Origin: an uncultured Thermodesulfobacteriota bacterium
GTDB taxonomy: Bacteria; Desulfobacterota; WTBG01; CAIYCZ01
Length of the DNA: 64,000 bases
Reading direction: 5' to 3'
NCBI GenBank assembly: GCA_964594075.1
Contig: CAZQKW010000004.1
Coordinates: forward strand, 38,171-102,170
Under the pieces are notes generated by a model that was not told the DNA's origin, searched no databases, and saw only the letters and a list, made by a program, of their open reading frames with translations. Made by a program: the position numbers and the translations under genes. This document shows positions 5,615 through 33,105 of this stretch, piece by piece (position 1 is the first letter of the stretch; the number at the start of each line of letters is the position of its first letter).

Positions 5615-6814
5615 TTATGTGGAATAGCTGGCATTGATTTTCACATAGTCATAACTCAGATCGCAGGTAAAAACCTCATAGCTCCGTGTTCCGTTGCATA
5701 AATCAATACTGATGTCAAGCCGCCGGTTTTTGAAGATGTTCTTCAGCTTCGAACGGTTGCGGGCAAACTCCCGTCCCTTGGTTACTGCCGCCAGATTGTT
5801 TATCCTGATACCAACCTTTTCCGGATCAAATGCTGCGCCAGAATTTCCCAAGGCCGCCATGATTCTTCCCCAGTTAAAATCTCCCCCAAAGCATGCGGTC
5901 TTGAATAAGGGCGAATTCGCCACCCGAAAGGCAGCCTTTCGCGCATCGTCAAGCGTCCGCGCATGCTGCACGGCGATGGCAATCAATTTGGTTGCGCCCT
6001 CACCGTCGCGGACAATGAGCAGTGCAAGTTCCTGCATTACTTCGCGCACCAGAAGCGCAAACTGTTTATATTCTGCGGAGTTTTTTTTCTGGATGGGTTT
6101 GCGGGCATCGCCGTTTGCCAGCAGCAGCACGGTATCGTTGGTGCTGGTTTCCCCGTCAACACTAATTCTGTTAAATGTTTCATCAACCGTGTTTTTCAAT
6201 AGCTCGGCGAGCAAACCTTGTTTGAGCGACGCATTGGTGATTATAAAAGCAAGCATCGTGGCCATCTGCGGCATGATCATGCCTGAGCCTTTGGCAATTC
6301 CGCATACCTTGATGATGTTTCCTTGAATGACCGCGCTGCGCGTTACCACCTTGGGGATGGTATCGGTGGTCATGATCGCTTGAGCAAAATCCTCAAACCC
6401 GTTTGCAGATGCGCTGTTAATCAATCGGGGAAGCGCTTTTGTGATGGCAGCAACCGGCAGCGGAACGCCGATAATGCCGGTTGAGCAGGGAACCACCAGA
6501 TGGTCTGCGATGCCAAGGACTCGGGCGGTTTCGCTGCAGGTCAGGCGCGCTGCATGTATGCCCTCCGGCCCGGTGCACGCATTGGCATTCCCGCTGTTTA
6601 CCAGCACTGCCTGTATTGTGCCCTTTTGGAGTCTTTTTTTGCCAATTAGAACCGGCGCAGCCTTTACCCGGTTCTTGGTAAAAACGCCCGCAGCGACGCA
6701 CGGTTTCGTGCTTATCAGAATACCAAGATCCTTGGCGCCGTTCTTCTTTATTCCGGCAGCAATGCCGGCAGCTAAAAACCCGGGAATTCCCTCTTTGATA
6801 TTGAAAGACTTCAT
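5615..6814 (-). CDS. argJ: bifunctional glutamate N-acetyltransferase / amino-acid acetyltransferase ArgJ
   Basis: 399 aa with the autoproteolytic ATML site (QMATMLAFI), characteristic of ArgJ. Confidence 0.9.
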   Translation of the reverse strand: MKSFNIKEGIPGFLAAGIAAGIKKNGAKDLGILISTKPCVAAGVFTKNRVKAAPVLIGKKRLQKGTIQAVLVNSGNANACTGPEGIHAARLTCSETARVLGIADHLVVPCSTGIIGVPLPVAAITKALPRLINSASANGFEDFAQAIMTTDTIPKVVTRSAVIQGNIIKVCGIAKGSGMIMPQMATMLAFIITNASLKQGLLAELLKNTVDETFNRISVDGETSTNDTVLLLANGDARKPIQKKNSAEYKQFALLVREVMQELALLIVRDGEGATKLIAIAVQHARTLDDARKAAFRVANSPLFKTACFGGDFNWGRIMAALGNSGAAFDPEKVGIRINNLAAVTKGREFARNRSKLKNIFKNRRLDISIDLCNGTRSYEVFTCDLSYDYVKINASYST

Positions 6815-6993
6815 AGCGCAGTCCTCGTATCCAGAATGGTCAGCTCTGTGGAATTCTGGTGATTATTAAGGCTCAGGTTACATAGCATACAAAGCAATAA
6901 ATTCCAAGCAATAATGTGCAATAACTGTTGTTAAAAACTTAATTTTATGCTATTTTATCAATGAACTACTTACCTTTTAACCTACCCAGGCAT

Positions 6994-7353
6994 GGGGGCG
7001 AAAAGGGTTCGACGGGGGTTGTTGAAGCTTTAACTGCATACCGAGGTTCCTATCGCGGCTCGTAAAAAAGGTAGGATTAAACATAATCGCAGACGATTAT
7101 AATTACGCTCTGGCTGCCTAATCGCAGCCGGCGTTCCGCGTGTTTTCTCCTGCCGGACACAAAGGGGCGTCACTTCAGACAGGATAGCTCTTTTTCCTCT
7201 CTCAAGGGAATCTGAGCGAAACGTTTTGAGATAGCCTTTAAAGAATCCTGCTTCTGGGAGGCTTAAAAGGCGAACCCTAAAACAGAAGCTATGTATGTAG
7301 ATGTTAAAGTGGAAAGCTCTCGGACGGGGGTTCGATTCCCCCCGCCTCCACCA
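6994..7353 (+). ncRNA. ssrA: tmRNA (SsrA)
   Basis: The 5' end GGGGGCGAAAAGGGTTCGACGGGGGTTG and the 3' tRNA-like end GGACGGGGGTTCGATTCCCCCCGCCTCCACCA are tmRNA-like. An internal tag frame reads gca gac gat tat aat tac gct ctg gct gcc taa, giving ADDYNYALAA-stop. Confidence 0.85.
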
Positions 7354-7696
7354 TACTGTTGAATTAATTTAAGTCCGTAGCAGTTTTTTGCCGTAAAAAA
7401 GTCTTTGAATCAGATTTGAGCTTATAAAAAATAATCCTTGCTATGGGGAAATAGGTATGCTATTTACTATAGCAACATAAACAGTACACCGTTTGTTGAG
7501 CTTTTGAAATCCTGCAACTGGTATTTGTTTCACTAACGTTTTTAAAACATAGCTGTAGACAAAACTGATCGCAACCATGGTATTTCGCTCACCCAGTGGT
7601 TGCGATTTTTGCATATAAGGGCACTGCATACAGGCTGTACAAGATTCAATCCGCTAATGAACGGATTGCTACCCATTTAAGAAAGGATTTTATACA

Positions 7697-7897
7697 ATGA
7701 AAAATGGAACGGTAAAATGGTTTAACGAATCAAAGGGCTTTGGCTTTATTGAACAGGCCGACGGCGAAGATGTGTTTGTGCACTACTCAGGTATCAACGG
7801 TACCGGCCACAAGAGTCTTAGCGAAGGCGACCAAGTTTCTTTTGACGTCCAGAAAGGCCCCAAAGGTCTTCAGGCGATAAATGTCAGTAAGCTTTAA
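7697..7897 (+). CDS. cold-shock protein (CspA family)
   Basis: 66 aa with [12 protein letters not shown] and VFVHYS RNP motifs. Confidence 0.9.
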
Positions 7898-7916
7898 TCT
7901 TACGTAGACTACTTGA

Positions 7917-7956
7917 AAATTCCAGTCTGCAGAGCGACAGATTGGAATTTTTTATT
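7917..7956 (+). terminator. putative intrinsic terminator after csp
   Basis: Hairpin AATTCCAGTCTG..CAGATTGGAATT followed by TTTTTT. Confidence 0.45.
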
Positions 7957-9164
7957 TAATATGGCCTCATGGATTCTAAGGTTGACACATCCGTATAACT
8001 ATGGTTTACTATTAAAACAGAAAAAACTTAATTAGAAGTTCTTGAAATTAGCAGAAAGCTCTCGGACTATCTAACTGTTCGTGAGCTTTTTTTATTTCCC
8101 GCTGCTGCGATTCACGGGTATTGCTGACGAAGATATTTTGGCACGGTCCTTAGGTTTCGCTGTCAGCTTACCGAGGTATCTTTTTTCTCACCATACCGGG
8201 AGGTGGATAAAAATGTAAAAAAATTATTGGCAGTGCACAGTCTATAGGATGAGCAACTTCTTAAACTCTTCATCGGTCCTGTCGCCGCATGATGGGCTTC
8301 CCAGAATTCGCAGTGAACTGCCGAGAAGTTGCTGAATTTGATATGTTGCACAATGGCCATATACGAGCAAGACAAATGGACATCCGAACATTACTGCCAC
8401 AGCGGTCTTGCTTCGCGAATGGCGCTTGTGAGAACCTAAACATTACAGGAAGGAGAAGTGCATAATGATAAAAATTGTCGTTGCCTATTTTGTCAACAAC
8501 ATTTCATTAGAAGATTGTTTGTATGCGCTGGGATTTTTAGCTATTGCCAGCCTATACCTAAAAACCATTTTGCAGCTAAACTGCGGATTCTAACGGCCGC
8601 ACCGTTAATTGAATACCGTTTTGCAAACAATGTTGTCCACAATACGAAATTGCCACGCCCCGCTTTGTAGCGGGGTCAAGCGGCAGGTATCGGAAACGAA
8701 GAATTAAGCTCCGGGAAGCCCCGCCGTGGAGGCGGGGAGCTTGACAACCTCCGGTACAATAATCATAGTATGGTCAGTGCGCGGAATCCCGCAGCGCAGG
8801 ATGACGAGGCACTCCCGTTTTAGAAACTATGCAACAACAAAATGGTAATGCCGTATGTGAGGCAGAAATGTTTTGCAAAATAAAGCTAAAGATTATTGAC
8901 TTGCAATTATTTACTGGAAAGGCTGGGACTGAAAGTGAATAGGGAATTTAAGCCTATTAACGGTGATCGCATAAAAGCGGCGGCAGGAATGCCGCCGCTT
9001 TTATTATTTAAGCCGAAAGGTGTGCGCTACGGTGTTCACACCCAATTATATGCGCTTTTAACAGGGATAAATTATTTTGCGGATAGCAAAAATATCGGGT
9101 AGAATATTTTATTAACGCTCAATCAAAAAGCCCCGACAGCAGCTCGGGATTTGGCTAAAGGAAG

Positions 9165-10085
9165 ATGTGCGGCATGGGATATATTATTGAAGCAGCCGGC
9201 TTAAAAAAAACCTTTGCAGATGTGGTTGCGGTTGACGGAATTTCCTTCGAGGTTACGCCGGGAGAATGTTTTGGCATCCTGGGGCCCAATGGCGCGGGGA
9301 AAACCACTACCGTACGGATGGTCTATGGGTTTTCACCCAAAACTGCAGGGACATTAAAAGTCTTTGGCCTTGATATTGACACCGAATGGCGCCGCATTAA
9401 AGCGCGCATCGGTGTCTGCACGCAGGAAAACAGTCTTGATCCGGACCTCACAGTAGAGCAGAACCTGCATGTGTTTGCGCGCTATTTTAATATTCCGCCT
9501 GCTGCCGCTCGCGAAAAAACCCGCAAACTTCTTGCGTTCATTGCTCTTGACCATCGCCGAACTGCGCGTGTTCCTGAGCTGTCCGGTGGCATGATGCGCC
9601 GGCTGGTGCTTGCGCGCGCGCTGCTTAATGACCCGGAATTGTTAATTCTTGACGAGCCGACCACCGGACTTGACCCGCAAGCGCGCCATCAGATATGGCA
9701 ACGGCTTGAAGAACTCAAAGCCGGCGGCCTCACCATTTTACTCACCACGCATTACATGGATGAAGCATCCCGGCTTTGCGACCGGCTGGTCATAATGGAT
9801 CACGGGCGCATTCTGGTTGCGGGGAAACCGGCGGATTTAATACGCGACCATGTGGGGCACAATGTTATTGAGGTTGATGGCCCGTGCGACGAACTGCGCG
9901 CATTCGTAAAAACGTTGCCCATAGAAAGCGAAGATCTCGGTCATCGCCTCATCATTTATGGCCAGGGCAGAGACGAGCTGTTTCACGAAATCGGCAATAA
10001 ATTCTGCACGGAGGGCTGCCTGCTGCGCATGGCCACGCTTGAAGATGTCTTTTTGCGGCTCACCGGAAGGGATTTGCGGGAATGA
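9165..10085 (+). CDS. ABC transporter ATP-binding protein (ABC-2 / NodI-DrrA-like exporter)
   Basis: Walker A GPNGAGKTT, signature LSGGMMRRL and Walker B LILDEPTTGLD. The true start may be the Met at 9174. Confidence 0.85.
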   Translation: MCGMGYIIEAAGLKKTFADVVAVDGISFEVTPGECFGILGPNGAGKTTTVRMVYGFSPKTAGTLKVFGLDIDTEWRRIKARIGVCTQENSLDPDLTVEQNLHVFARYFNIPPAAAREKTRKLLAFIALDHRRTARVPELSGGMMRRLVLARALLNDPELLILDEPTTGLDPQARHQIWQRLEELKAGGLTILLTTHYMDEASRLCDRLVIMDHGRILVAGKPADLIRDHVGHNVIEVDGPCDELRAFVKTLPIESEDLGHRLIIYGQGRDELFHEIGNKFCTEGCLLRMATLEDVFLRLTGRDLRE

Positions 10086-18151: not shown

Positions 18152-18448
18152 CCCCTTTTTTCACCCTCTTCATAACATCTAACCCCTTTTTTCCCAATTA
18201 ATATCCTCGCGGACATTTACTTTTATCAACAGCTGCAAGATTAAAAACAAAATACTTAAAATTAGTCTCATATAGGTTGCAAACTTCAACATAGCAATAA
18301 TAAACAATTATTTAGCAATAATATAATATTATATAGCATTATGCCTTATTGACTTTTAACGATATTTATTGATATAATTTACTCCAATTAAATAACAAAA
18401 ATTACTTAAATTAATATAAATTAACTCTTACAAGCTCATCCAGCACTT

Positions 18449-21310
18449 ATGCGCAAAAATTTTTATCTTCCATCCAGCTTTTTCCCCGGGCGTTCCTGCC
18501 TGTTTAAAATACTCTGCACAATAATTCACGGTATCTTAATAATCAGTTCTACACCGGTTGGCGCATCCTGGGAATGGCTGAATCCCTTGCCTCAGGGGAA
18601 TAATCTCTATGGTGTCTGGGTTAATACGTCAAGCGATGTTTTTGCGGTGGGCGCAGCAGGAACTATTCTGCATTATAACGGCAGCGAATGGACCAGTATG
18701 GCAAGCGGTACGTCGCTATCGTTATATGCGGTCTGGGGGACTTCGGGAGCCCATGTGATAGCCGTGGGGGACAAGGGAACTATCCTGCGCTATAACGGCA
18801 GCTCTTGGAGCAGCATGACCAGCGGCACAACCGCAGCTCTTAATGCCGTCTGGGGCAGCGCGCCTCATAACGTGCTTGCGGTAGGCGCTAATGGCGCCAT
18901 CCTGCGCTACGACGGCAGCTCCTGGAGCGCCATGAACAGCGGGACCAACAAATCGCTGTATGGCGTATGGTGCAGCTCCGCTACCAGCGCATGTGCCGTG
19001 GGAGATGACGGCACTATTCTATATTACAACGGCAGCAAGTGGAACGGCATGAGCAGCGGCACGACAACCTGGCTCAATGCCGTCTGGGGCAGTTCTGACA
19101 GTAACATATTTGCGGTTGGCGCCTCCGGCACGATCCTGCGTTACAACGGCAGCTCCTGGAGCAGCATGACCAGCGGCACTTTTGAGTGGCTCAGCGGCGT
19201 GTGGGGCAAGTCTGACAGCGATGTGTTTGCAGTGGGCGATAACGGAGATATTTTGCATTACGACGGTCTTTCCTGGAGCACCATGGCCAGCCCCTCAAAC
19301 GCCTGGCTAAATGCGGTCAATGGAAGCGCAGACGGCAATGTGTTTACGGTGGGGTTGTCCGGTGAAATCCTCGCCTTTGACGGCAGCACCTGGAGCAGCA
19401 TGACCAGCGGCACGACAACCTGGCTCAATGCCGTCTGGGGCAGTTCGGGCAACGATGTGTTTGCGGTGGGCGATAGCGGCACCATCCTCCACTACGACGG
19501 CAGCTCTTGGAGCAAAATGATCAGCACTACGCTTAAACCTTTATACGCGGTCTGGGGCAGTGCAAACAACAACGTGTTTGCGGTAGGCGATTCAGGAATT
19601 ATCCTGCGCTATAACGGCAGCACCTGGAGCAAAATGACCAGCGGCACCAGCAAATCGCTGTATGGCGTGTGGGGCAGTTCGGGCAACAACATATTCGCAG
19701 TGGGTAATGGCGGCACGATCCTGCGTTATGACGGCAGCACCTGGGTCAGCATGAGCAGCGGCACAACTATCTGGCTCACTGCCGTCTGGGGCAGTTCGGG
19801 CAGCGACGTGTTTGCGGTGGGCGACAGCGGTACCATCCTCCACTATGACGGCAGTGCCTGGAGCAGCATGATCAGCAACTCATTAGCATTGCTGAGTGGT
19901 ATCTGGGGCAGTTCGGCCAGCGACGTGTTCGCAGTGGGCGATAGCGGCGCCATTCTGCACTATGATGGCAGTATCTGGAGCGCCATGGCAAGCGGCACCA
20001 CCGCATGGCTTAAAGCAGCCTGGGGAGTTTCCGGCACTGATGTCTATGCCGTGGGAACCTCGGGCATTATTCTTCGCTTTGACGGCGGCACCTGGGTCAG
20101 CATGTCCTCACCCACAGCAAAGTCCCTTATGGGTATCTGGGGCATGGCTCAAGCAGATCTGTTTGCTGTGGGTGAAGGAGGCACCATTCTTCACACTATA
20201 GACAGCGGCGGCAGTAATACCACCACAGCCCCGTCAACCACTACCAGTATCGCAGATACCACCACCACAGAGCCAACCACGACGACCAGCATAGAATCCG
20301 GCCCATCAACAACAACGACCGAGCCGTCAACCACCTCCAGCAGCGTCGAACCATCCACTACGACAACAACCGCTATTTCCGGGGTGAGCATTGTCAATAT
20401 TACGCAGGACTGGTCAGGGGCAAGTGATGTAACCCTCACCTGGGAAAGCAGCGTGGGGCAGAGCTATTCCATCTTGCTGAAAGATGAATTCAGCGGCTCA
20501 TTCATCGCCGTGGATACGGTTGCCGGAAATCAGGGCACCACCTCCTGGACTGATAATGGCGTTTGGCCTGGCGGAACGCACCCTTCAACCGTTTCGCAGC
20601 GTTACTACAAAGTTTCCGCAAGCGGCATAGAGTCGCACAACACGGTCGGCATCTACCGCATCACCGTGCAGGAAGGCATGAATCTCATATCCCTACCGCT
20701 CATACCGTTCCGATCAGACCTGGTGAATGTGATAGGAAGCCAATTGACGGGCGCGCCAAATGAAGGGGACGCCGACCGCCTCTGGGTATGGAATGGAAAC
20801 AATTACGAATTTGCCTGGCTGGTGGAAGGCGTGGGACCACCCTATGACGGAACGTGGTACACCGGTAATGCCGAAACCGCGGTTACACTGGGCGCCGACC
20901 GCGGCGCATGGGTGCAGGTGCGGCCAGGACACGGGACGCAAACGGTCTATATCGCAGGTGAAGTTGCCGCAGCAGCACGTATTATTCCGCTGGCAACCGG
21001 CATGAATCTGGTGGGAAGCAGTTACCCAGTTGCGGTGCCGCTGGGCGACCAACAGAGCGATGACAGCAATCTGTGGGAAAGCGGGGCAACCGGTGCAGAT
21101 AATGAAGGAGATGCAGACCGGGTGTGGAGCTGGAACGGATCACATTATCAGTTCCACTGGCTGGTGGACCACGTCAATGCAACGCTTAACGGAACGTGGT
21201 ATTCGGGAAACAGCCCCAGCCCGCTCGCTCTTGAACCGGGGAAAGGATACTGGGTGCAAATCCGCGCCAATCATGCGGGTTTTACCTGGACCTATCCCAA
21301 ACCATATTGA
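18449..21310 (+). CDS. large secreted repeat protein: ~14 x 40-aa Asp-box/BNR-like beta-propeller repeats, Thr/Pro-rich linker, FN3-like segment, duplicated C-terminal ~90-aa domain
   Basis: The repeat unit is L.AVWGSS..DVFAVGD.GTILHYDGS.WS.M.SGT; the DGSxWS part resembles the sialidase Asp-box SxDxGxTW. The linker reads TTTAPSTTTSIADTTTTEPTTTT. The C-terminal duplication is NEGDADRxWxWNGxxYxFxWLV...GTWYxGN...WVQxR. Confidence 0.8.
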   Translation: MRKNFYLPSSFFPGRSCLFKILCTIIHGILIISSTPVGASWEWLNPLPQGNNLYGVWVNTSSDVFAVGAAGTILHYNGSEWTSMASGTSLSLYAVWGTSGAHVIAVGDKGTILRYNGSSWSSMTSGTTAALNAVWGSAPHNVLAVGANGAILRYDGSSWSAMNSGTNKSLYGVWCSSATSACAVGDDGTILYYNGSKWNGMSSGTTTWLNAVWGSSDSNIFAVGASGTILRYNGSSWSSMTSGTFEWLSGVWGKSDSDVFAVGDNGDILHYDGLSWSTMASPSNAWLNAVNGSADGNVFTVGLSGEILAFDGSTWSSMTSGTTTWLNAVWGSSGNDVFAVGDSGTILHYDGSSWSKMISTTLKPLYAVWGSANNNVFAVGDSGIILRYNGSTWSKMTSGTSKSLYGVWGSSGNNIFAVGNGGTILRYDGSTWVSMSSGTTIWLTAVWGSSGSDVFAVGDSGTILHYDGSAWSSMISNSLALLSGIWGSSASDVFAVGDSGAILHYDGSIWSAMASGTTAWLKAAWGVSGTDVYAVGTSGIILRFDGGTWVSMSSPTAKSLMGIWGMAQADLFAVGEGGTILHTIDSGGSNTTTAPSTTTSIADTTTTEPTTTTSIESGPSTTTTEPSTTSSSVEPSTTTTTAISGVSIVNITQDWSGASDVTLTWESSVGQSYSILLKDEFSGSFIAVDTVAGNQGTTSWTDNGVWPGGTHPSTVSQRYYKVSASGIESHNTVGIYRITVQEGMNLISLPLIPFRSDLVNVIGSQLTGAPNEGDADRLWVWNGNNYEFAWLVEGVGPPYDGTWYTGNAETAVTLGADRGAWVQVRPGHGTQTVYIAGEVAAAARIIPLATGMNLVGSSYPVAVPLGDQQSDDSNLWESGATGADNEGDADRVWSWNGSHYQFHWLVDHVNATLNGTWYSGNSPSPLALEPGKGYWVQIRANHAGFTWTYPKPY

Positions 21311-21383: not shown

Positions 21384-23132
21384 ATGCAAAAGAGCAACCA
21401 TGTGTCCTCTCATAGTATTTTTGCAGTCCTGATAGCCCTGCTGATTGGTTTGTTGCAACCTGCAGCCGCTGTCGCAGGTGTCATCGGGGTGCGCTCAAGC
21501 ACTGGCATAAAAAATAGTGACGGCAATTATTTGGTGGGCGATGGATTTCTCAATGCAGGACCAGATTGTCTGGTGCAGTGCATTTATGCGGGCGCAGACG
21601 GGGTCATTAATCCGCCGAATCCACTTGACGGCAGCCCGACCGGTGACGACCAGGCGCTGGAGATGGAAGAAATTGCCGGCCGTTATTATACTGTGATTGG
21701 AGAAGGGTATCCGTTTTCACCTGACACCGGAAAATTCGCCGAGGATTTCAGGCATGCTTTAAATGCCGGCAGTAAAATTTATTGCCGCGCATGGAACAGT
21801 TATGATTTTGCATCAGCAACCTGCTATGGGGATTCGCCATTATATCCAATAGCAAATGTGGTGGGGGAATACCATGATTTCGGCACCTGGCTAACCGATA
21901 CCTGCACGCCGTCTTCCAGCACGACAACCGTTGAGTCAACCACCACATCGGTAGAAAACACCACAACGGTTGAATCAACCACCACTACTACGGAACCTAT
22001 TACCACTTCAATAGTTTCAACTTCGACAACTTCTGAAGCGAGCACTACCTCCATTGAGCCGACCACGTCAACGATAGAATTGACCACTACAACGACTGCC
22101 GAAAGCACCACAACGGTTGACCTCGCAACCACAACCGTGGAAATGACAACCAGTTCCGTAGAATCTACCACGACATCAATAATGCCGACAACCACCACGA
22201 CAGAAGAGAACACCACGACCGTGCAGCCGACCATCACGACCAGCACCCCGGAAATTACCACTACCAGTGATCCATCAACCAGCTCTGTGGAGCCTTCTAC
22301 AACTTCTGTGGCATACACGACCACGTTCTTGCCGGTTACTACGACAATACGGCCGCCCACTACCTCAATCGGCCCGATCATTACCACTTCTCTACCTAAG
22401 ACAACAACCTCTATCGGACCGGTTACAACCACAACGTCGTCCCAAAAAACTTCAACTTCTTCCGCGGTTGCGAGCAGCACCACAACGACCGCAGAACCGT
22501 TTACGGTACGTTTCACAGCCGATGTCCGGACTGCGCGCATATTCCGTCCCGTGCAGTTCAGCAGCACCAGCAATGGCATTGTCCGCGAATATCGGTGGCG
22601 CTTTGGCGATGGCGCAGAAAGCAACGAGGCGCATCCGCAGCATATCTATAAAAAGAAAGGCATTTATGATGTAACGTTAACGGTAACCGGAGATGACGGC
22701 TCCACGGCAACAGAAAAAAAAGAAAAGTATATAACCGTCCACGGATTCTGCCCACTTACCACATCGCTAAACAACGAGAGTCACATAGAGGTGTTATATA
22801 AAGTAAGAGACCGGCTGCTCCCCAGCCTGCCCGGAATGATGCTGATATCGCTTTACTATCGCAATGCCGTTGAGCTGACGCGGCTGCTGGAAAACAATCC
22901 GTATCTGCAGAATCGGCTCAGGGAGATGGTAACAAATAACATCGGGATTGCAGAGCAGTGGGTTGCAGGTAAACCTGCAGTGATCTCGGCAGAACAGGTT
23001 GAAGAGATTGTGCAGTTTCTGGAAGCGGTAAGCGCATCGAGCAGCGTGCGGCTGCGCAACGATATTGATATGTTCATAGCGGGGCTGAACGACGGGTATT
23101 TACTCCAGGAATTTTATATTCAGGTGGAGTAG
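21384..23132 (+). CDS. secreted protein: N-terminal domain, ~190-aa Thr-rich imperfect repeat linker (TTTVESTTTS), PKD domain, conserved C-terminal domain shared with downstream gene
   Basis: Signal peptide MQKSNHVSSHSIFAVLIALLIGLLQPAAA. PKD motif WRFGDGAESNEAHPQHIYKKKGIYDVTLTVTGDDG. C-terminal domain LYYRNAVELTRLLENNPYLQNRLREMV. Confidence 0.8.
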   Translation: MQKSNHVSSHSIFAVLIALLIGLLQPAAAVAGVIGVRSSTGIKNSDGNYLVGDGFLNAGPDCLVQCIYAGADGVINPPNPLDGSPTGDDQALEMEEIAGRYYTVIGEGYPFSPDTGKFAEDFRHALNAGSKIYCRAWNSYDFASATCYGDSPLYPIANVVGEYHDFGTWLTDTCTPSSSTTTVESTTTSVENTTTVESTTTTTEPITTSIVSTSTTSEASTTSIEPTTSTIELTTTTTAESTTTVDLATTTVEMTTSSVESTTTSIMPTTTTTEENTTTVQPTITTSTPEITTTSDPSTSSVEPSTTSVAYTTTFLPVTTTIRPPTTSIGPIITTSLPKTTTSIGPVTTTTSSQKTSTSSAVASSTTTTAEPFTVRFTADVRTARIFRPVQFSSTSNGIVREYRWRFGDGAESNEAHPQHIYKKKGIYDVTLTVTGDDGSTATEKKEKYITVHGFCPLTTSLNNESHIEVLYKVRDRLLPSLPGMMLISLYYRNAVELTRLLENNPYLQNRLREMVTNNIGIAEQWVAGKPAVISAEQVEEIVQFLEAVSASSSVRLRNDIDMFIAGLNDGYLLQEFYIQVE

Positions 23133-23414: not shown

Positions 23415-26021
23415 TCACTGGTGCACCTTTATTCCGAACGTGCTAAAGATTGTCTTATTCTGCATATCGCGTTTGAGCCTGCTGAGGTCCTCCTTGAGGG
23501 CAGGACTTGCCTGATTCTTCAGAGCGTCTATCAACGCAACAGTTTCTTGTATGGTGCCTTTTGATATTACGGTCTTTCGCTTTGTAAGAAAAGCTTCTGC
23601 AACCGGCATAATTTTCCGGATAAGGCTTTGTGCCCTGTTTTTCATTCCCTGATCAGCAGCAAGAATGGCACTCAGTTCAGAAGCATTTTTATAATACAGC
23701 CCGACATAATAACCCCCCAATCCATTCTTTCCGGCCAGACGGTTTCTCACCCCGCGTAATTTTGTTAAATCTTTGCTGTTTTGCCCAAGAACGGTTTCGG
23801 CAGGGCAAATCGAAGGTATCGTCGTAGTTGTCGTGGGGGTTTTTGATAACTCTACCGATGAGCAAAAAACATAATCCAATACGATTCCAGGATCATTGGT
23901 AGTGAGTTCAATAGCGTATGTTCCTGCTCCTAAATACCTATTCATAGTGGCAATAAATGGATACGAATCATCGCATTTGGAGGCAGTCAGTGCTGCTTCA
24001 GCGGGAGTGTTTCCTTCGTACAGATAAAGACATAGCCCTTCCTGTTCAGACGTGGCGTCTAAAACAATGATCGTCGGATTGATTAAGGTAAAATAGAAAC
24101 GATCAGCATAGTGTGCATCTTCATAATGAACACTTGCCCAGTCAGACTTTCTCAGGCCGCCTTCATAAGCGTAGGAAGAACATTCAGCCTGAGTTAATGG
24201 CACTGATGAAATGATACTGTAATCTGTTGCTACTTTGCGGTCCTCGGTTGTCAGCTCAATAGTATAGGTTCCCGCTCCCAAATACTTGTTAATCTTGGCA
24301 ATGTATGGATATGCGTCTTTGCAGTTTGAGGTTATTAATTCGGCATTAGAGGGGTCACTCCCGTTATAAAGATACAAGCACAAGCCATCCTGCTCAGATG
24401 CAGCATCAACAACAAGAACCGTGGGACTGGTTAATGTAATCGTATAGAGGTCGGTATAGTGCGCCTCAGCATAATGGACGCTGAGACAATCAGGTTCCTG
24501 AAGTGTTCCCGGATAGGTATATACCGTGCTTTCAACCTGACTCAATTCCACCGACGAACGAAACGTATATTCCAATGAGATCTTTGGATCGTCGGTGGTG
24601 AGTTCAATAGAGTAGGTCCCCGCGCCTAAAAATTTGTTCACCTTTGCTACAAAAGGATAGGTGTCGTCACAGCTTGAGGCGATGAGCTCCGCACCGGACG
24701 GCTTGCTCCAGTCATACACATAGAGGCAGACACCCTCCTGTTCGGACGTGGCGTCTAAAACAATGTTGGTGGGGGTAGTGAGAGTAAACGTATAGAGGTC
24801 GGTATAGTGCGCATCATCATAATGGACGCTGGGCCAATCGGACTCTTCAAGATTACCCTGATACGTGTAGGAAGAACAACCAACAGGGCTTAACTCAATT
24901 GATGAGCGAAACACATAATCCAATGAGATTTTGGGATCATCGGTGGTAAGTTCAATGGTGTAGGTCCCGGCGCCCAGAAATTTGTTCGTCTTGGCTATAA
25001 ACGGATACGTATCTTTACAATCAGAACCAATAAGCTCTGCACCGGACGGCTTGCTCCAGTCATACATATACAGGCACACGCCATCCTGTTCAGAGGTTGC
25101 ATCTAAAACGACGTTGGTCGGGCTGGTCAAGGTAAAAGTATACAGATCGGTATAGTGTGCATCGGTGTATTGAATACTCAAACAATCAGCATCTTGAAGT
25201 TTTCCCGGGTAGGTGTAGGATGCACATTCAACCTGGCTAAGCGGCACTGACGAGACAAATACATAATCTGGGGAAACCTTTGGATCATCAGTGGTGAGTT
25301 CTATGGAATACGTGCCTGCCCCTAAAAACTTGTTTATCTTGGCAATAAAGGGATAGTTGTCATTACAGTTTGAGGCAATTAATTCTGATCCTGACGGCTT
25401 GCTCCAGTCATACACATACAGGCACAGGCCTTCCTGTTCTGATGCAGCGTCTAAAACAACAACCGTGGGAGTCGTCAAGGTGAAAGTGTAGAGATCGGTA
25501 TAGTGTGCATCGGAGTAGCGGATACCCAGACAATCAGACTCTTCAAGTTTTCCCGGATAAGAATAGGAAGTGCACGCAACCTGAGTCAGTTCTACCGGGG
25601 CGTCAAGAATATACGACAATGACACCTTGCGGTCATTGGTGGTGAGTTCAACAGAATAGGTTCCCGCGCCTAAGGGTATGGTATCTCTCAGTGGTATCCG
25701 TGGCGCAAAAGGATATACATCATCACAGGTATTGTAAATTAACTCAGCACCCGACGGGTTGCTCAGGTCATACAAATACAGGCACATGCCCTCCTGTTCA
25801 GACGTAGCGCTTAAATAAATATTCGCAGGAGCAGTCAGGGTGAATGTAAAAAGATCTGTATAATGCGCGTCAGCGTAGCGGATACTGAGGCAATCAGGCT
25901 CTTCAAGGGTGCCATTTATAGTGTTACTCTGGGCAGGGATAATGAATAAAGATAGGCTCAGAATAATAAATAGAACGGAAAACTGAATGAGTTGTAATAT
26001 TTTTTTCAATGCTTTTTTCAT
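23415..26021 (-). CDS. secreted protein with 7 tandem ~123-aa PPC-like (pre-peptidase C-terminal) domains, Thr-rich linker, shared C-terminal domain
   Basis: Repeat unit DCLSIRYxDAHYTDLYTFTLTxP...DATSEQEGxCLYxYDWSKPSGAELIAS.C.D.YPFIAK.NKFLGAGTYSIELTTDDPK. Linker TPTTTTTIPS. C-terminal domain LYYKNASELSAILAADQGMKNRAQSLI. Has a signal peptide. Confidence 0.8.
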   Translation of the reverse strand: MKKALKKILQLIQFSVLFIILSLSLFIIPAQSNTINGTLEEPDCLSIRYADAHYTDLFTFTLTAPANIYLSATSEQEGMCLYLYDLSNPSGAELIYNTCDDVYPFAPRIPLRDTIPLGAGTYSVELTTNDRKVSLSYILDAPVELTQVACTSYSYPGKLEESDCLGIRYSDAHYTDLYTFTLTTPTVVVLDAASEQEGLCLYVYDWSKPSGSELIASNCNDNYPFIAKINKFLGAGTYSIELTTDDPKVSPDYVFVSSVPLSQVECASYTYPGKLQDADCLSIQYTDAHYTDLYTFTLTSPTNVVLDATSEQDGVCLYMYDWSKPSGAELIGSDCKDTYPFIAKTNKFLGAGTYTIELTTDDPKISLDYVFRSSIELSPVGCSSYTYQGNLEESDWPSVHYDDAHYTDLYTFTLTTPTNIVLDATSEQEGVCLYVYDWSKPSGAELIASSCDDTYPFVAKVNKFLGAGTYSIELTTDDPKISLEYTFRSSVELSQVESTVYTYPGTLQEPDCLSVHYAEAHYTDLYTITLTSPTVLVVDAASEQDGLCLYLYNGSDPSNAELITSNCKDAYPYIAKINKYLGAGTYTIELTTEDRKVATDYSIISSVPLTQAECSSYAYEGGLRKSDWASVHYEDAHYADRFYFTLINPTIIVLDATSEQEGLCLYLYEGNTPAEAALTASKCDDSYPFIATMNRYLGAGTYAIELTTNDPGIVLDYVFCSSVELSKTPTTTTTIPSICPAETVLGQNSKDLTKLRGVRNRLAGKNGLGGYYVGLYYKNASELSAILAADQGMKNRAQSLIRKIMPVAEAFLTKRKTVISKGTIQETVALIDALKNQASPALKEDLSRLKRDMQNKTIFSTFGIKVHQ

Positions 26022-28430: not shown

Positions 28431-31121
28431 TTAATGTATCCGTATCTTTGAGCCAACTTTCAGGACTGATTCCTCATATAAGCCGTTCAGTTTTCTCAAG
28501 GTATTAACATCAACATTATATTTTCTGGATAGCGACATCAGGGTATCGCCCTGCGCAACACTATGATATTGAGGCGCCCGCGCCTTCGGCGCTGCTGCTT
28601 TAGCAATTTGTTTAATGTTCTCTTTTTTTGCCGGCGCGGGTTTTCTTACTATCTTGGGGGCCGGCGGCTTTACCGTCTTCTTCGTATCCGGCTCTACTGC
28701 CACGGGCTTTTCACCTTCCTGTTTCTCAGTCGGTTTAACCTCTTGAGCCGGTGTTTTTTCCGCTGTAACATTTTTTTCTGGCGCAGATGGGGCGATTTCC
28801 GTTGCTGCTGTCTCTTTTTTCTCTGTTTCAGATTCTGTTCCGGTTGCTTCTTTTTTCTGCTCAGTTTCTGGCTGGGGGGGAGTGTCCATCACCGGCGCTA
28901 TCTGCGCAGTCGGTTCCGGCGCACCTTCTGCCTTTGTTTCCGGCGCTGGCGCAGAAAGTATATTTGACGAAGAGCCGGTTTCGGCAACGGGCTCGCTGCC
29001 TGCGGGCGCATCAGCCTGAAGCGTATTTGCAGCAGCCTTTAATTCCTCTCCAGATGGCGCGTTCGCACCTGCCTGCCCAGCCTCTGGCAACGGCGCCGGT
29101 TTCTGCATTGCCGCAGGTCCCTCAGACACTTGGTTTGTAACTTCCGGCGCACCTGTTTCGCTCTTCGCTGTTTCCTGCTTCTCTTCTGGTTTGGCTGCAG
29201 CAGCACCAGGTTCGGTCAGCGTTTCTGCTGCGGGCTGCACAGCAGGAACAGCATCCTGAGGTGCAGGAGCTGCCTTTGCTGCCGTCGCCTGTTCTCCTGG
29301 TTGAGCCGGTTCAGCGGGTTTATCAGCGGGAGAGCTTTTGGATTCTTGCTGCACAGAACCCTGCGCCGGCTGCGCCTGTTCGGTTATAGGCGCCGGTTGC
29401 GGCGCGTCACTATGAGCCGGTGCTGCTTCACCGGCTGCACTGGGCGTATTAGCGTCTGCCGCCTGCACGGCAGGGGAAGCAGTTTCCGGAGGCTTTTCTG
29501 CTGTTTCTTGCTTTATCACAGCCTCGCCGGGAACTTCCTGCGCTGGTGCGGGCGCTGCCGCGTGCGTATTCTCCGGTGCGGGTGCTTCGGTTTTAACTGC
29601 GGCGACCAATTCGCTGCCGGTTGCGATTTTATCCGCTGCCGGGGAAGGTGCCGGCGGCCCTTCTGCTGCTGGTTGAACTGGAGGCGGTGAAACCGGAATC
29701 GGCGGCTCTTGTACCGCTTGCGCCGGAGTAGCGTCCGCTGCAGATGGTTTGGTCTCCGCCTTTTCTGCCGCCGGGGCGGCAGTTGCAATCCGGGCAGGTT
29801 GCTGGTTCTTTTCCGTACTGACGGCCACCGGTGCATGAGCGCGCGGTTGCACATCAGACTTTGATTTCAGAACAGGTTTTTTTAGGGGTTCAGTCTTTTT
29901 AGCGGTTACGGCGGACGCAACTTTTTTTACTGGAGGAGAAACTTCAGGTTTAAGAGTTACCCGCGTTTTTTCCTGCATCGCTGGTTTCTCTGTCTTATCC
30001 TCAGCAATACTTTGCACTTTAACCTTGGGCGGTTCCTTGATAACCGTCACCGGCTCCGGTGTCTGCTGTTTTGGCGGCGGCAATTCCTCAAGGTTAAAAT
30101 CTTCGGCTTTGACGATCTCAGCCTGCGGCTTATCGGTCAAAAAGTCTAATTTTGAAGACCCGCTGGCACCGGTTCTGGATTTTTTTAAGTTTTCGTTTGC
30201 TATAGTGTAAAAAGAGGGCTTCAGTTTTATTGCTTTTTCAAACGCCTGGTTCGCCCTCTCATAATCGCCTTTCATCAACAGCACACATCCCAGGTTATTA
30301 TAGGCAGTTGCCTCGTCGCTCACTTTCTTAAAAGTCTCCAGCGCTTCCTGATACCTGCCGGACAGTCCCAACGCAAGTCCCATGTTATTGTAAACCTTGT
30401 TCGGCACCGATCGGAAACCCATCGCCGTGTCAAACGCTTTTATGGCGCTGTCATAATTGCCGGAAAATAAATATGACAGCCCGAGATTGTTATACAGCAG
30501 CGCATTGTCCTGCTTGAGTGCGATTGCCTTCTGATAGGCGGCTATTGCCCGCGGGTAGTCCTTGCGCTTATCGTAAATAATCCCCAGACAGTTATGGCTC
30601 TTCCACAGGTTCTGATTCAGCTCCAGGGCTTTAATGAAATACCGCTCTGCCTCAGCAATCTTTTGCTGCTGAAAGAGCGCCAGCCCCATGCCTTCGTGTG
30701 CCAGGGCGTTTTGCGGCTCTTTTCTCATGACCTCCTGAAACTCCAGCATCGCATCGCTGAACATTTTGTTTAACAAAAACAGCAGGCCAATTTTATATCT
30801 GATTCGCAGGTTTTCCGGTTCAAGCCGCACTGATTTATCATACTGGAGAAACGCCTGTTGCAGGTTGCCGCTGTTGAAATAGTCGTCCCCTGACCGCTCA
30901 TACTCGGCAGCCGTCATTTCAGGGGGTTCTTTGAGGGGAACATCTCGTTGTGCGGGATTGGTGGCTTGGCGGGGCAAATTTTTTACCGGATATTTGTTGG
31001 CAAAGGGGTCTTTCAGGGTGTCCTTCCCGGCAATGGTGCTATTCTGCGAACAGCCGGATAAAAAAAAGATGCTAACCGCAAGAGCTAAGAAAGTTAGCAA
31101 GACCCCCTTTGATAGCACCAT
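28431..31121 (-). CDS. TPR-repeat lipoprotein with ~550-aa Pro/Ala/Glu-rich low-complexity region and C-terminal LysM domain (TadD-like / FimV-like)
   Basis: Lipobox FLSGC. N-terminal TPR repeats (AxxYYxxG, LGxxYxxxxxYxxA). C-terminal LysM YHSVAQGDTLMSLSRKYNVDVNTLRKLNG. Last gene of the tad locus. Confidence 0.8.
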   Translation of the reverse strand: MVLSKGVLLTFLALAVSIFFLSGCSQNSTIAGKDTLKDPFANKYPVKNLPRQATNPAQRDVPLKEPPEMTAAEYERSGDDYFNSGNLQQAFLQYDKSVRLEPENLRIRYKIGLLFLLNKMFSDAMLEFQEVMRKEPQNALAHEGMGLALFQQQKIAEAERYFIKALELNQNLWKSHNCLGIIYDKRKDYPRAIAAYQKAIALKQDNALLYNNLGLSYLFSGNYDSAIKAFDTAMGFRSVPNKVYNNMGLALGLSGRYQEALETFKKVSDEATAYNNLGCVLLMKGDYERANQAFEKAIKLKPSFYTIANENLKKSRTGASGSSKLDFLTDKPQAEIVKAEDFNLEELPPPKQQTPEPVTVIKEPPKVKVQSIAEDKTEKPAMQEKTRVTLKPEVSPPVKKVASAVTAKKTEPLKKPVLKSKSDVQPRAHAPVAVSTEKNQQPARIATAAPAAEKAETKPSAADATPAQAVQEPPIPVSPPPVQPAAEGPPAPSPAADKIATGSELVAAVKTEAPAPENTHAAAPAPAQEVPGEAVIKQETAEKPPETASPAVQAADANTPSAAGEAAPAHSDAPQPAPITEQAQPAQGSVQQESKSSPADKPAEPAQPGEQATAAKAAPAPQDAVPAVQPAAETLTEPGAAAAKPEEKQETAKSETGAPEVTNQVSEGPAAMQKPAPLPEAGQAGANAPSGEELKAAANTLQADAPAGSEPVAETGSSSNILSAPAPETKAEGAPEPTAQIAPVMDTPPQPETEQKKEATGTESETEKKETAATEIAPSAPEKNVTAEKTPAQEVKPTEKQEGEKPVAVEPDTKKTVKPPAPKIVRKPAPAKKENIKQIAKAAAPKARAPQYHSVAQGDTLMSLSRKYNVDVNTLRKLNGLYEESVLKVGSKIRIH

Positions 31122-31158
31122 ATAATGTTCCTGAAGTTGTCAAGCGTTTTGCGAAAAA

Positions 31159-32106
31159 TTATGGTTTTATAAGTGTATGAAATATGCGAATGGCTGCCGG
31201 CCCCATTAATATAACAAAGAGCGCAGGGAAAATGCAAAAAATAAGCGGCACCATTAACTTGACCGGCAGTTTTGCAGCAATTTCTTCAGCTTTCATATAC
31301 CTCTTAGTCCTGAAGGTGTCAGAATAAGTGCGCAACGCCTGCGCTATGCTGGTGCCGAATTTATCAGTCTGTATGAGCAAGGTGGCAAAATTTTTAATGT
31401 CCTCTATGTCAATACGCAGACCTAAATTGCGTAGCGCATCCGGCCGCGATTTTCCCGCTCGCAATTCTAAATTATACAGTTTAAGCTCATCGCTCAACGG
31501 CGGACTCGTCAATTTTATTTCATCCGCTACCCGGTTCATCGCCGCATCCAGCCCCATGCCCGCTTCAACGCAGACCACCAAAATATCCAGCGCATCAGGT
31601 ATTCCCCGTGATATTTTTTCTTTTCGGATGTTGGTTTTTATCTGCAACAAAAGATCAGGCAAATAAAATCCGGCAACCGCAAGAACGACGCAGATTATCA
31701 TCGTAATATTTGGTTGAACAATTTTAAAAACAGTTACCCGAAGAAGAAAAAATACTACCGGCAATAATAAGGAAAGGAAAAACTTTGCCCCCCAATAAAC
31801 GGAAATCAAATCTTCATTATTTAATCCTGCCCGTAAAAAATTAAGTTTTATTCGCGAATAATCTTCAGACCTTTCATTAACAAATAATTTACCCAGCGGT
31901 TTCAGCCAGGCCGCAAATGAAAGGAAGGACATATCCTTTCTGCTTCGCACACTCTCTTTTAAATCTTCAAACGTTCCTACATATTCCTCAAATTGTACTT
32001 TTTTAATTAACTTTTTCTTAGCCTGAACAAAATTTAAATACTGCAGGGTGCCAAAAATAATTAAAAAGATGAAAATAAATGTTATGGCTGAAATAATAAG
32101 CAGCAT
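31159..32106 (-). CDS. tadC: Flp pilus assembly inner-membrane protein TadC (T2SS F-domain)
   Basis: GspF-like domain with GMGLDAAMNRVADE. Confidence 0.85.
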   Translation of the reverse strand: MLLIISAITFIFIFLIIFGTLQYLNFVQAKKKLIKKVQFEEYVGTFEDLKESVRSRKDMSFLSFAAWLKPLGKLFVNERSEDYSRIKLNFLRAGLNNEDLISVYWGAKFFLSLLLPVVFFLLRVTVFKIVQPNITMIICVVLAVAGFYLPDLLLQIKTNIRKEKISRGIPDALDILVVCVEAGMGLDAAMNRVADEIKLTSPPLSDELKLYNLELRAGKSRPDALRNLGLRIDIEDIKNFATLLIQTDKFGTSIAQALRTYSDTFRTKRYMKAEEIAAKLPVKLMVPLIFCIFPALFVILMGPAAIRIFHTLIKP

Positions 32107-32127
32107 GACCGTATTGTTTTAACTTGT

Positions 32128-33105
32128 TTAAATTCTTATTGAAACCATGCGGTTCATTATATAAATACCCACCGCTATTAACACCAGTGCCCCGACGATC
32201 ATTTTTTTGCCGATGGGATCTTGTATGAGAGAATTTACATAATCAGGGTTTAAGATCCGAATGACGAAAAAGATCAAAAATGGAAGAACCGTTAGTATAA
32301 TAGCAGATATTTTTCCTTCCGCAGATAAAACCCGCAGTTTGTCATTAAATTTAAATCTTTCGCGAATAATATGCGCTATATTGTCAATAATCTCGGCAAG
32401 ATTCCCGCCGGTCTCACGCTGAAGAATGACCGAAACTACAAAAAATTTAACTTCAGCGCAGTCAACACGATAAGCAAGATTTCTCAATGCATCAGCAACC
32501 GGGACGCCAAAATTGATTTCATCCAGCACTTGGGCAAATTCGGGGCCAAGCGGTTCGCCAAAATTATCAACCACCACCTTCATGCCGCTGGTGAACGCAT
32601 GCCCCGCACGCAGCGATCGGGCAATCAGCTCAAGCGCCTCCGGCAATTGTTTTTCAAACTCCTGCAATCGGTTTCTTTTTTTAAGGGAAAGATACAAAAA
32701 AGGAATTATGGCAAACAAAAAAGCTGTAATATAGGATATTCCCAATACTCTGACCGGCAAAATGACACTGCCCATTAAAAAGCCAACCTGCATTAACAAC
32801 AACGAGAGCAAGATAAACACACCGACTGGATACTGCGCATTCGCTTGCTGGATTAATCTATCAAGCCGTTCAATACCGGGAATTTTAAAAAAAATTTTAT
32901 TTAAGAACGGAACATTGCTAAGAAGTCTTTTGCGTAAGATATCCGGCGTATCAATGGAATACTGGGAGAAAGAGAATTTTTTCAGGCGATTCTGAATTTG
33001 TCTGCTCTTAAGCCCACTAATAGACCTGATGCCATATAACACCAGCTCAATAAAAATGATGGTTATTATTGCAAAGAAAATAATTAATCTAAACGGAAGA
33101 TCCAT
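32128..33105 (-). CDS. tadB: Flp pilus assembly inner-membrane protein TadB (T2SS F-domain)
   Basis: GspF-like domain with LRAGHAFTSGMKVV...GVPVADALRNL. Confidence 0.85.
   Translation of the reverse strand: MDLPFRLIIFFAIITIIFIELVLYGIRSISGLKSRQIQNRLKKFSFSQYSIDTPDILRKRLLSNVPFLNKIFFKIPGIERLDRLIQQANAQYPVGVFILLSLLLMQVGFLMGSVILPVRVLGISYITAFLFAIIPFLYLSLKKRNRLQEFEKQLPEALELIARSLRAGHAFTSGMKVVVDNFGEPLGPEFAQVLDEINFGVPVADALRNLAYRVDCAEVKFFVVSVILQRETGGNLAEIIDNIAHIIRERFKFNDKLRVLSAEGKISAIILTVLPFLIFFVIRILNPDYVNSLIQDPIGKKMIVGALVLIAVGIYIMNRMVSIRI

Follow-up and report, generated by a model that had tools for sequence, protein, structure and literature searches.

A predicted secreted double beta-propeller with DNA tracts shared among its blades and a C-terminal cassette encoded next to a conserved partner gene

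Introduction

Repetitive beta-propellers are numerous, and more than 10,000 of them with a median blade identity above 60% have been described, including deleted and disrupted ones (Pereira and Lupas 2022; PMC9218822). Among the known systems closest to the protein studied here are highly repetitive, recently amplified propellers such as WRAP, a domain of Nostoc punctiforme Npun_R6612 (PDB 2ymu; PMC9218822, PMC6805158). Our subject is a protein of 953 amino acids (aa), encoded by an open reading frame (ORF) in a 64,000-nucleotide (nt) stretch of DNA from an uncultured Thermodesulfobacteriota bacterium; this whole stretch is the window, and all coordinates count from its first letter as position 1. 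On balance, we favor a reading in which the protein is a secreted double-propeller head with recombining blades, followed by a cassette tail and accompanied by a partner encoded next to it.

Contrary to WRAP, this protein has no WD motif and no match to the WD40 hidden Markov model (8–17% identity), and it is predicted to be secreted, with an extracellular domain architecture. Its median blade identity of 56–58% falls just under the >60% of the class of Pereira and Lupas, which suggests an older array whose amplification is old and in which only short tracts are still exchanged. The behavior of the repeats nevertheless fits that of known repetitive propellers.

A 7-bladed propeller of four-stranded blades of ~40 aa is shared with Ycf48/HCF136 (PSII_BNR, PF14870) and with the Asp-box/BNR supercluster. 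However, neither the protein nor its blade consensus matches any model of that clan, and the SxDxGxTW motif is lacking. In contrast to Ycf48, a predicted double propeller in a secreted multidomain context is found here, unrelated to photosystem II assembly, the role given for PSII_BNR in its Pfam description. Aip1/WDR1 (PDB 1nr0) are also double propellers of 14 repeats, but no relationship in sequence was detected to Aip1, a WD40 protein of the eukaryotic cytosol.

The tail can be likened, by function only, to the C-terminal domain of the type IX secretion system (T9SS) and to the cohesin-dockerin pair, as a constant C-terminal beta-sandwich cassette behind many heads. Similarly to these systems, there is a dedicated co-encoded partner, which bears a T9SS C-terminal domain in at least two loci (L008 and L011). 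On the other hand, the cassette has no sequence match or specific fold match to them, the interaction is a presumed one, and the partner is often anchorless.

Architecture of the Protein and Fold of the Propellers

The ORF is genuine. Purifying selection is seen in comparison with its orthologue in the syntenic locus L001, the ratio of nonsynonymous to synonymous substitution rates (dN/dS) amounting to 0.29 in units 1–7 and to 0.16 in the cassette; the neighboring NYN gene has 0.26 for comparison. The parts of the gene are as follows.

18449..21310, + strand: main ORF, 953 aa, intact
18449..18565, + strand: predicted Sec signal peptide, aa 1–39, with a hydrophobic core, ending in PVGA ahead of SWEW
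18566..18604, + strand: N-terminal strand SWEWLNPLPQGNN, aa 40–52
18605–20242, + strand: repeat units 1–14, aa 53–598, each of 39 aa (117 nt), in perfect register
18605..19423, + strand: units 1–7 (7 x 117 nt), predicted first 7-bladed propeller
19424..20242, + strand: units 8–14 (7 units), predicted second 7-bladed propeller
20198..20374, + strand: Thr/Ser/Pro-rich linker, aa 584–642, of whose 59 residues 25 are T, 12 S, and 5 P
20375..20638, + strand: fibronectin type III (Fn3)-like beta-sandwich, first domain of the cassette, aa 643–730
20639..20965, + strand: twin module copy 1, aa 731–839, GMNLISLPL...NEGDADRLWVWNG...DGTWYTGN...WVQVRPGH
20966..21307, + strand: twin module copy 2, aa 840–953, with the conserved end ...FTWTYPKPY-COOH

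The signal peptide was called by reading the sequence with the -3/-1 rule. In accordance with the original prediction, there are 14 repeats placed head to tail, although their period is 39 aa rather than the 40 aa that had been given. The predicted model has the fold of a 7-bladed, four-stranded propeller, and the earlier proposal of two such propellers is well supported as a prediction. After the Sec signal peptide, the 14 blades would form two 7-bladed propellers acting as a ligand-binding head, which a probably extended Thr/Ser-rich linker would connect to the compact C-terminal cassette. The predicted local distance difference test score (pLDDT) of the linker is below 50 in the portion that the propeller model spans.

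In the model, unit 14 has three strands only, is ordered to about aa 583, and lacks the strand carrying W..M. The N-terminal strand resembles strand four of the units (W..M.SGT...L), forms a beta-strand in the propeller model (E3-6), and is kept in homologues as W.W.NP.PQGN. Since unit 14 stands without a fourth strand, the N-terminal strand probably supplies it and would thus complete the last blade.

The similarity of the propellers to solved structures, among which Aip1 with its two 7-bladed propellers is listed, is one of fold and not of family membership, the sequence identity to structures of similar fold being 8–17%. No Pfam or NCBIfam model matches the protein in whole-protein scans. 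In detail, no Pfam propeller model matches units 1–7 (aa 40–312) or a consensus repeated seven times, and none is present among the families listed for 32 homologues. The matches to NAGLU_N, DUF6087, Cyt-b5, and CBM_5_12 were rejected as sub-threshold or as artefacts of repetition. Searches of PDB sequences with the protein and with a 32-sequence propeller alignment gave nothing significant, i.e., low-complexity matches and a weak match to Toxoplasma TLAP2 (E 1.2e-3). A literature search for the propeller family by name found nothing specific to it.

The blades had been called Asp-box-like, a term that does not apply to them. The Asp-box, S-x-D-x-G-x-T-W, lies in the loop between blade strands 3 and 4 (Quistgaard and Thirup 2009, as given in PMC9218822). 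Neither S.D.G.[TS]W nor the relaxed form [ST].D.G..[WF] occurs in any of the 14 units; 13 of them carry [YF][DN]GxxW, where the spacing from D to W is one residue shorter than in the Asp-box. The models BNR, BNR_2, PSII_BNR, and Sortilin-Vps10 match neither the whole protein (E≤1), nor units 1–7 (E≤10), nor the sevenfold consensus, and no BNR-clan model appears (E≤0.01) in the list of the 25 most frequent families of the 32 homologues. The WD40 signature is also absent, with no WD dipeptide in the whole protein and no WD40 match in Pfam, the COPA/B second-propeller model reaching 17.8–18.8 bits against a cut-off of 57. There is no DxDxDG motif in the protein and no match of it to Tectonin (PF19193).

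Homologous propellers are found in more than 6,651 clusters at E≤1e-3, in a search with a ceiling of 8,000 candidates. The source names of the best hits include Desulfobacterales, Desulfonema, Magnetomoraceae, Chloroflexi, Gemmatimonadetes, Acidobacteria, Planctomycetota, Thioploca, and others. The propellers are fused to TIG, PKD, Big, cadherin-like, beta-helix, CarboxypepD_reg, peptidase, and esterase domains, which is the repertoire of extracellular proteins. The modal number of units is 14 (59 of 121 proteins, i.e., the 120 best hits and the query, in a ranking that favors query-shaped proteins), with others at 20–21 and 28; these counts are consistent with a constraint to multiples of seven.

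The sole bridge to a named family is formed by two distant homologues that pass the PSII_BNR threshold inside the propeller (P0062 with 33.8 bits against a cut-off of 27, and P0119 with 29.1 bits), while one more, P0053, approaches Tectonin (22.6 bits, cut-off 30). The same two homologues speak for catalytic propellers, e.g., with glycoside hydrolase activity as in the two-propeller GH74 enzymes or lyase activity as in virginiamycin B lyase, and the Pfam clan of PSII_BNR also includes sialidases. Such an activity seems improbable, as no enzyme family model matches the protein and conservation falls on the structural G, W, V, and Y of each blade, without a blade-specific invariant polar set. 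Moreover, this propeller is found joined to a wide range of unrelated enzymes and adhesin-type domains, as a recognition module would be. A ligand-binding head is preferred: judging from its sequence, the protein is probably secreted, associated with the cell surface or the matrix, and binds a ligand through its propellers. The surface location that had been suggested for it is plausible in view of the signal peptide, the Thr-rich linker, and the Fn3-like domain.

Similarity and Exchange among the Repeat Units

The repeat region shows periods of 117, 234, and 351 nt in Tandem Repeats Finder. The units have a mean pairwise DNA identity of 0.63, with a maximum of 0.81 between units 8 and 11, and they differ from one another at 19–50% of their positions. 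At the protein level, the mean pairwise identity is 0.55 and the median 0.56, the median blade identity being 0.56 for all 14 units and 0.58 for units 1–13. The copies had been described as near-identical in DNA, which is too strong a term for a mean of 0.63, but the excess of identity behind it is real.

This excess was measured by redrawing the synonymous codons 300 times on the same protein. Codon identity at identical residues is 0.50, compared with 0.31 in sequences simulated with the codon usage of the window and 0.40 with that of the repeat region. The longest exact repeat is 42 nt (simulated mean 16–18 nt, maximum 29), and 36 repeated 20-mers are observed where fewer than one is simulated. 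None of the 300 simulations attained any of the observed values. The DNA similarity among the units exceeds what protein conservation explains.

An alternative would hold that protein constraint and codon bias produce the pattern with no exchange of DNA, and that a 9-unit orthologue described below is a product of assembly collapse. The strong conservation of the blade protein and the biased codons of this G+C-rich region are in its favor. However, the failure of all 300 resamplings, even with the codon usage of the repeat region itself, together with the lineage-specific conversion tract presented next, makes it scarcely credible. Exchange of DNA among the blades remains the preferred explanation.

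19054..19095, + strand: 42-nt exact tract at the boundary of units 4 and 5, identical to 19405–19446 at the boundary of units 7 and 8

The 28-mer CCTGGCTCAATGCCGTCTGGGGCAGTTC, which falls within this 42-nt repeat and had been placed at about 19066 and 19420, occurs exactly at 19068 and 19419, and with two mismatches at 19770. For a second recurring sequence, the 32-mer GGCAGCTCC...GGCAC, only approximate copies stand beside the exact one at 19148, with one mismatch at 18797 and 19382 and three at 19616. In L001, the 4/5 boundary has five differences inside the 42-nt tract, whereas its 7/8 boundary has one from that of the window; the tract is probably the result of gene conversion in the window lineage. 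The exact repeats of 21–42 nt are spaced 2, 3, 5, or 7 units apart. L001 has a private 21-nt tract common to two units that lie 351 nt apart, and the synonymous divergence between the window and L001 is elevated in units 1, 4, and 5.

The excess at the DNA level stems from such short tracts, and most synonymous sites differ between units. Within units 1–7, orthologous units of the window and L001 are 0.78–0.95 identical, whereas paralogous units within a gene are ~0.6–0.7 identical. This is an indication that there has been no wholesale homogenization since the two lineages split. Of the recent duplication or concerted evolution that the original prediction had inferred, the exchange of short tracts is retained and the wholesale homogenization is not. 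In the mechanism proposed here, gene conversion would copy short tracts from blade to blade, and tandem blades sharing DNA tracts of up to 42 nt would allow recombination in register.

Blade Number between Lineages

The best homologue, P0001 (760 aa), is located in the syntenic locus L001, whose flanks are 87–94% identical in DNA to the window (relatedness of ~90% in nucleotides). It has 9 units, and the 9-unit protein is identical on three independent assemblies (one from ENA and two from Logan).

19466..20087, + strand: region in whose alignment 585 nt (5 units) are missing from L001

Unit 9 of L001 matches unit 14 of the window (0.85), and unit 8 of L001 is a mosaic that begins with the first 42 nt of window unit 8, continues with 37 nt from unit 12, and closes with the tail of unit 13. 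From this mosaic, two in-register gaps of four units and one unit are deduced; in the best alignment they extend over 19466–19933 and 19971–20087, with the 37-nt piece of unit 12 kept between them. A single deletion of 585 nt at 19516–20100 fits slightly worse. The collapse of repeats during assembly was rejected as the origin of the 9-unit allele, since the units are too divergent (19–50% of positions) for a k-mer collapse and the ENA assembly and the two independent Logan assemblies concur.

In L013, a syntenic relative at greater distance, there are 14 units with rough positional orthology, including units 8, 9, 11, and 13. Therefore, 14 units are the ancestral state and the 9-unit state is a derived loss. 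The L013 orthologue (6236–9167) is distributed over three ORFs, with frameshifts in unit 8, in units 9–10, and at unit 14, which reflect either errors of long-read assembly or a pseudogene. The recombinational length variation that had been anticipated for the array is borne out by the 9 units of L001 against the 14 of L013, and whole blades would be lost through in-register recombination, as in this sister lineage.

A more dynamic explanation is that the array is a contingency locus, with a blade number that often changes within populations and generates functional surface variants. The in-register loss of five blades between lineages that are ~90% identical, the exact tracts of 21–42 nt as a recombination substrate, and an indel of 1.18 kb in the adjoining gene agree with it. 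Nevertheless, units with ~63% DNA identity are a poor substrate for frequent RecA-dependent slippage. One 9-unit allele is found in three samples and 14 units are kept in both the window and the distant L013, so the copy number looks stable in the long term. In addition, 14 is a strong mode of the whole family, which suggests a structural constraint to multiples of seven. Frequent switching is thus regarded as quite unlikely, and occasional in-register loss of blades between lineages is preferred.

The C-Terminal Cassette and the Downstream Partner Gene

The cassette comprises the last 311 aa (aa 643–953). Its AlphaFold2 model is compact, with a pLDDT of 94.6 and a predicted template modeling score of 0.89. 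The first domain has the Fn3 beta-sandwich fold in the model, although Pfam fn3 (PF00041) has no match at E≤10 on the 311-aa cassette. The following two are the twin modules, for which the model gives immunoglobulin-like (Ig-like) beta-sandwiches with no close solved relative. In Foldseek, the whole cassette aligns weakly with triple Fn3/Ig tandems and the single modules with Asf1-type Ig-like sandwiches.

The duplicated C-terminal module that had been noticed is confirmed, since its two copies are 45% identical (E 5e-28, aa 731–839 against 840–953), with a length of ~110 aa instead of ~90. Its description as uncharacterized also stands: no Pfam or NCBIfam model matches the cassette, Pfam is also blank in eight distant relatives, and a PDB sequence search with the module profile gave nothing significant (FhuE, E 0.63).

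Close relatives of the cassette form 32 clusters among 5.8 billion sequences. In these, it is always C-terminal and ends in (K/R)PY, behind heads that consist of propellers, thrombospondin type-3 (TSP3) repeats, Cys-rich repeats, or DUF11-like domains. A single-module profile detected 651 representatives among 1.84 billion proteins, 260 of them at E≤1e-10. Nearly all have two copies, mostly C-terminal, in proteins of up to 4,782 aa, and the heads of distant relatives include beta-helix/NosD, TSP3, PKD, and Big_5. Among 185,579 species-representative genomes, 8 cassette loci were found. The cassette would be a reusable tail of one Fn3-like domain and two related Ig-like modules, placed behind varied heads.

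Directly downstream of the cassette gene lies a second gene.

21384..23132, + strand: partner gene, 582 aa
~21470–21890, + strand: conserved partner domain of ~130 aa, about aa 30–170

A homologous partner gene directly follows the cassette gene in 12 of the 12 loci examined, i.e., the window, L001, L004–L011 (Myxococcota, Cytophagia, KSB1, and unclassified metagenome-assembled genomes, MAGs), L012, and L013. Two separate cassette-partner pairs, L005 and L006, come from a single MAG. The partner starts 6–73 nt past the cassette stop or overlaps it; in the window, where the gap is 73 nt, no terminator-like site was found on the + strand between the two genes.

In the window, the partner consists of a signal peptide, the ~130-aa domain, a Thr-rich linker, a PKD domain (1e-15), and a C-terminal helical domain. 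The conserved domain is characterized by the motif set DLVQ.I.AG..G...PD..G.PT.DD ... IG.G.PF.PD.GKF ... Y.RAWN ... YG.S.L ... DF.TW. It has no match in Pfam or NCBIfam, and a word-indexed search with it gave 4 clusters, too small a number for an estimate of the family size. Beyond this domain the partners vary: those of L008 and L011 bear a T9SS sorting domain, that of L004 has MopE-like Cys repeats, and that of L012 has no extension. The partners of L001 (12290–12829) and L013 are short and truncated inside the conserved domain.

Relative to the window, L001 lacks ~1.18 kb of the partner gene (21820–22995), a stretch spanning the bulk of the Thr-rich linker and the PKD domain. Together with the loss of blades, this means that both genes of the pair carry deletions in the L001 lineage.

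It is proposed, tentatively, that the cassette would dock to, or assemble with, the co-encoded partner; as read from the sequences, this is possible rather than likely. With somewhat less conviction still, the cassette and partner may be a system of two proteins for extracellular docking or assembly that has not been described before. In it, the universal tail would attach interchangeable heads (propellers, beta-helices, TSP3 arrays, and proteins reaching 4,782 aa) to a lineage-variable partner, and there would be a tie to matrix or biofilm architecture.

Alternatively, the twin module with its ...YPKPY-COOH end might be a C-terminal secretion or sorting domain in the manner of T9SS, which a dedicated machinery for export or attachment would recognize and perhaps remove. 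The position of the close family at the extreme C-terminus, its conserved terminal motif, and its very different passengers resemble such a domain. The Ig-like beta-sandwich is the fold of T9SS C-terminal domains as well, and the partner bears one of these in at least two loci. On the contrary, neither Por_Secre_tail/TIGR04183 nor other sorting-domain models of Pfam and NCBIfam match the cassette, which is also far larger than known C-terminal signals, its two copies amounting to ~220 aa and an Fn3-like domain adding to them. The 1,500-aa proteins of some relatives (P0260, P0264, and P0277) carry the module near the N-terminus. Furthermore, in L008 and L011 the T9SS domain is on the partner and not on the cassette protein, and the 582-aa partner of the window has no T9SS C-terminal domain match. 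A sorting function is accordingly judged unlikely, and docking to the partner is the reading kept here.

Neighboring Genes and Regulatory Sequences

Upstream of the main gene, one further feature was recorded.

18349..18378, + strand: promoter-like site TTGACT-18 nt-TATAAT, by consensus match only

This near-consensus sigma-70 site has 11 of 12 matches and a TG ahead of the -10 element, ~70 nt 5′ of the ATG. It sits in an AT-rich spacer (18291–18424) with short tandem repeats of periods 9–21 nt (e.g., ATAGCAATAATAAAAAATTAT, 2.3 copies), which overlap and flank it.

On the opposite side of the pair, the convergent gene at 23415–26021 (- strand) encodes an 868-aa protein of the NCBIfam DVUA0089 family. 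It has six repeats of ~115 aa with matches to PPC (pre-peptidase C-terminal), which cross-match at 64–70% in DNA, and is thus a second internally repetitive extracellular gene adjoining the main gene. Its 23415–23810 segment (- strand) and the C-terminus of the partner (22749–23129, + strand) encode a common domain of ~128 aa, apparently helical, which starts with Cys and has the pattern CP..T.L...L..(V)R.RL...G....LYY.NA.EL. The two copies are 27% identical (E 1e-13), and no Pfam match was found for this domain.

At 28431–33105 (- strand) there is a TPR/LysM protein with two T2SSF-family membrane proteins, as annotated through synteny with L001 in Pfam. They may belong to a Tad or type II-like cluster for secretion or pili, which lies a few kb away from the main gene. 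The window also contains a tmRNA gene (6994–7353, + strand) with the tag peptide ADDYNYALAA, and is taken as bacterial chromosome for this reason.

In L011 (248–12663) and L008 (9–12423), from two unrelated MAGs, one of KSB1 and one unclassified, the pair is flanked by regulators and by genes similar to those of exopolysaccharide (EPS) export. Upstream there are two kinases, one of them a PAS histidine kinase, together with a sigma-54 response regulator, and downstream there are genes whose best matches are XrtA/PEP-CTERM-type EPS export families. In detail, L011 has an exporter, a chain-length determinant, an ATPase, and a Tyr kinase, all under the family cut-offs, and L008 has a Wza-like Poly_export/SLBB gene after a 1,212-aa gene. 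This context hints at a link of the pair to exopolysaccharide or matrix loci.

Discussion

Several observations weigh against the favored reading. The 9-blade orthologue clashes with the 7+7 architecture; it may be a decaying variant and not an adaptive one, since the L001 partner gene is likewise truncated, and no variation of blade number within a population was observed. In the main protein, neither a membrane anchor nor a sorting signal nor a domain for cell-wall binding was found, and no member of the propeller family has a known ligand. As for the tail, its module lies near the N-terminus in a few distant relatives. The partner of several loci is no more than a protein of ~155 aa, free of any anchoring domain, which makes anchoring of the cassette protein by it less likely, and docking is deduced from gene adjacency and patterns of domain swapping.

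The repeats themselves add little, as the exchange of DNA between blades and the change of blade number are already well documented for tandem propellers, and this array is an ordinary example of repeat-driven propeller evolution. It nevertheless offers a clean natural case in which five blades were lost in register and a 7+7 arrangement was broken, which may interest those who study propeller folding.

Less ordinary are the strict co-encoding across phyla of the uncharacterized cassette and its partner, a pair of moderate interest, and the existence of a very common propeller family with no curated model. For annotation, the value lies in a family of more than 6,600 clusters from many phyla, composed of extracellular propellers with 39-residue blades, for which Pfam and NCBIfam have no model. 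The rarer cassette and the adjacent partner domain have neither such a model nor a solved relative. If the docking pair were true, it would represent a new way for bacteria of many phyla to mount diverse extracellular proteins.

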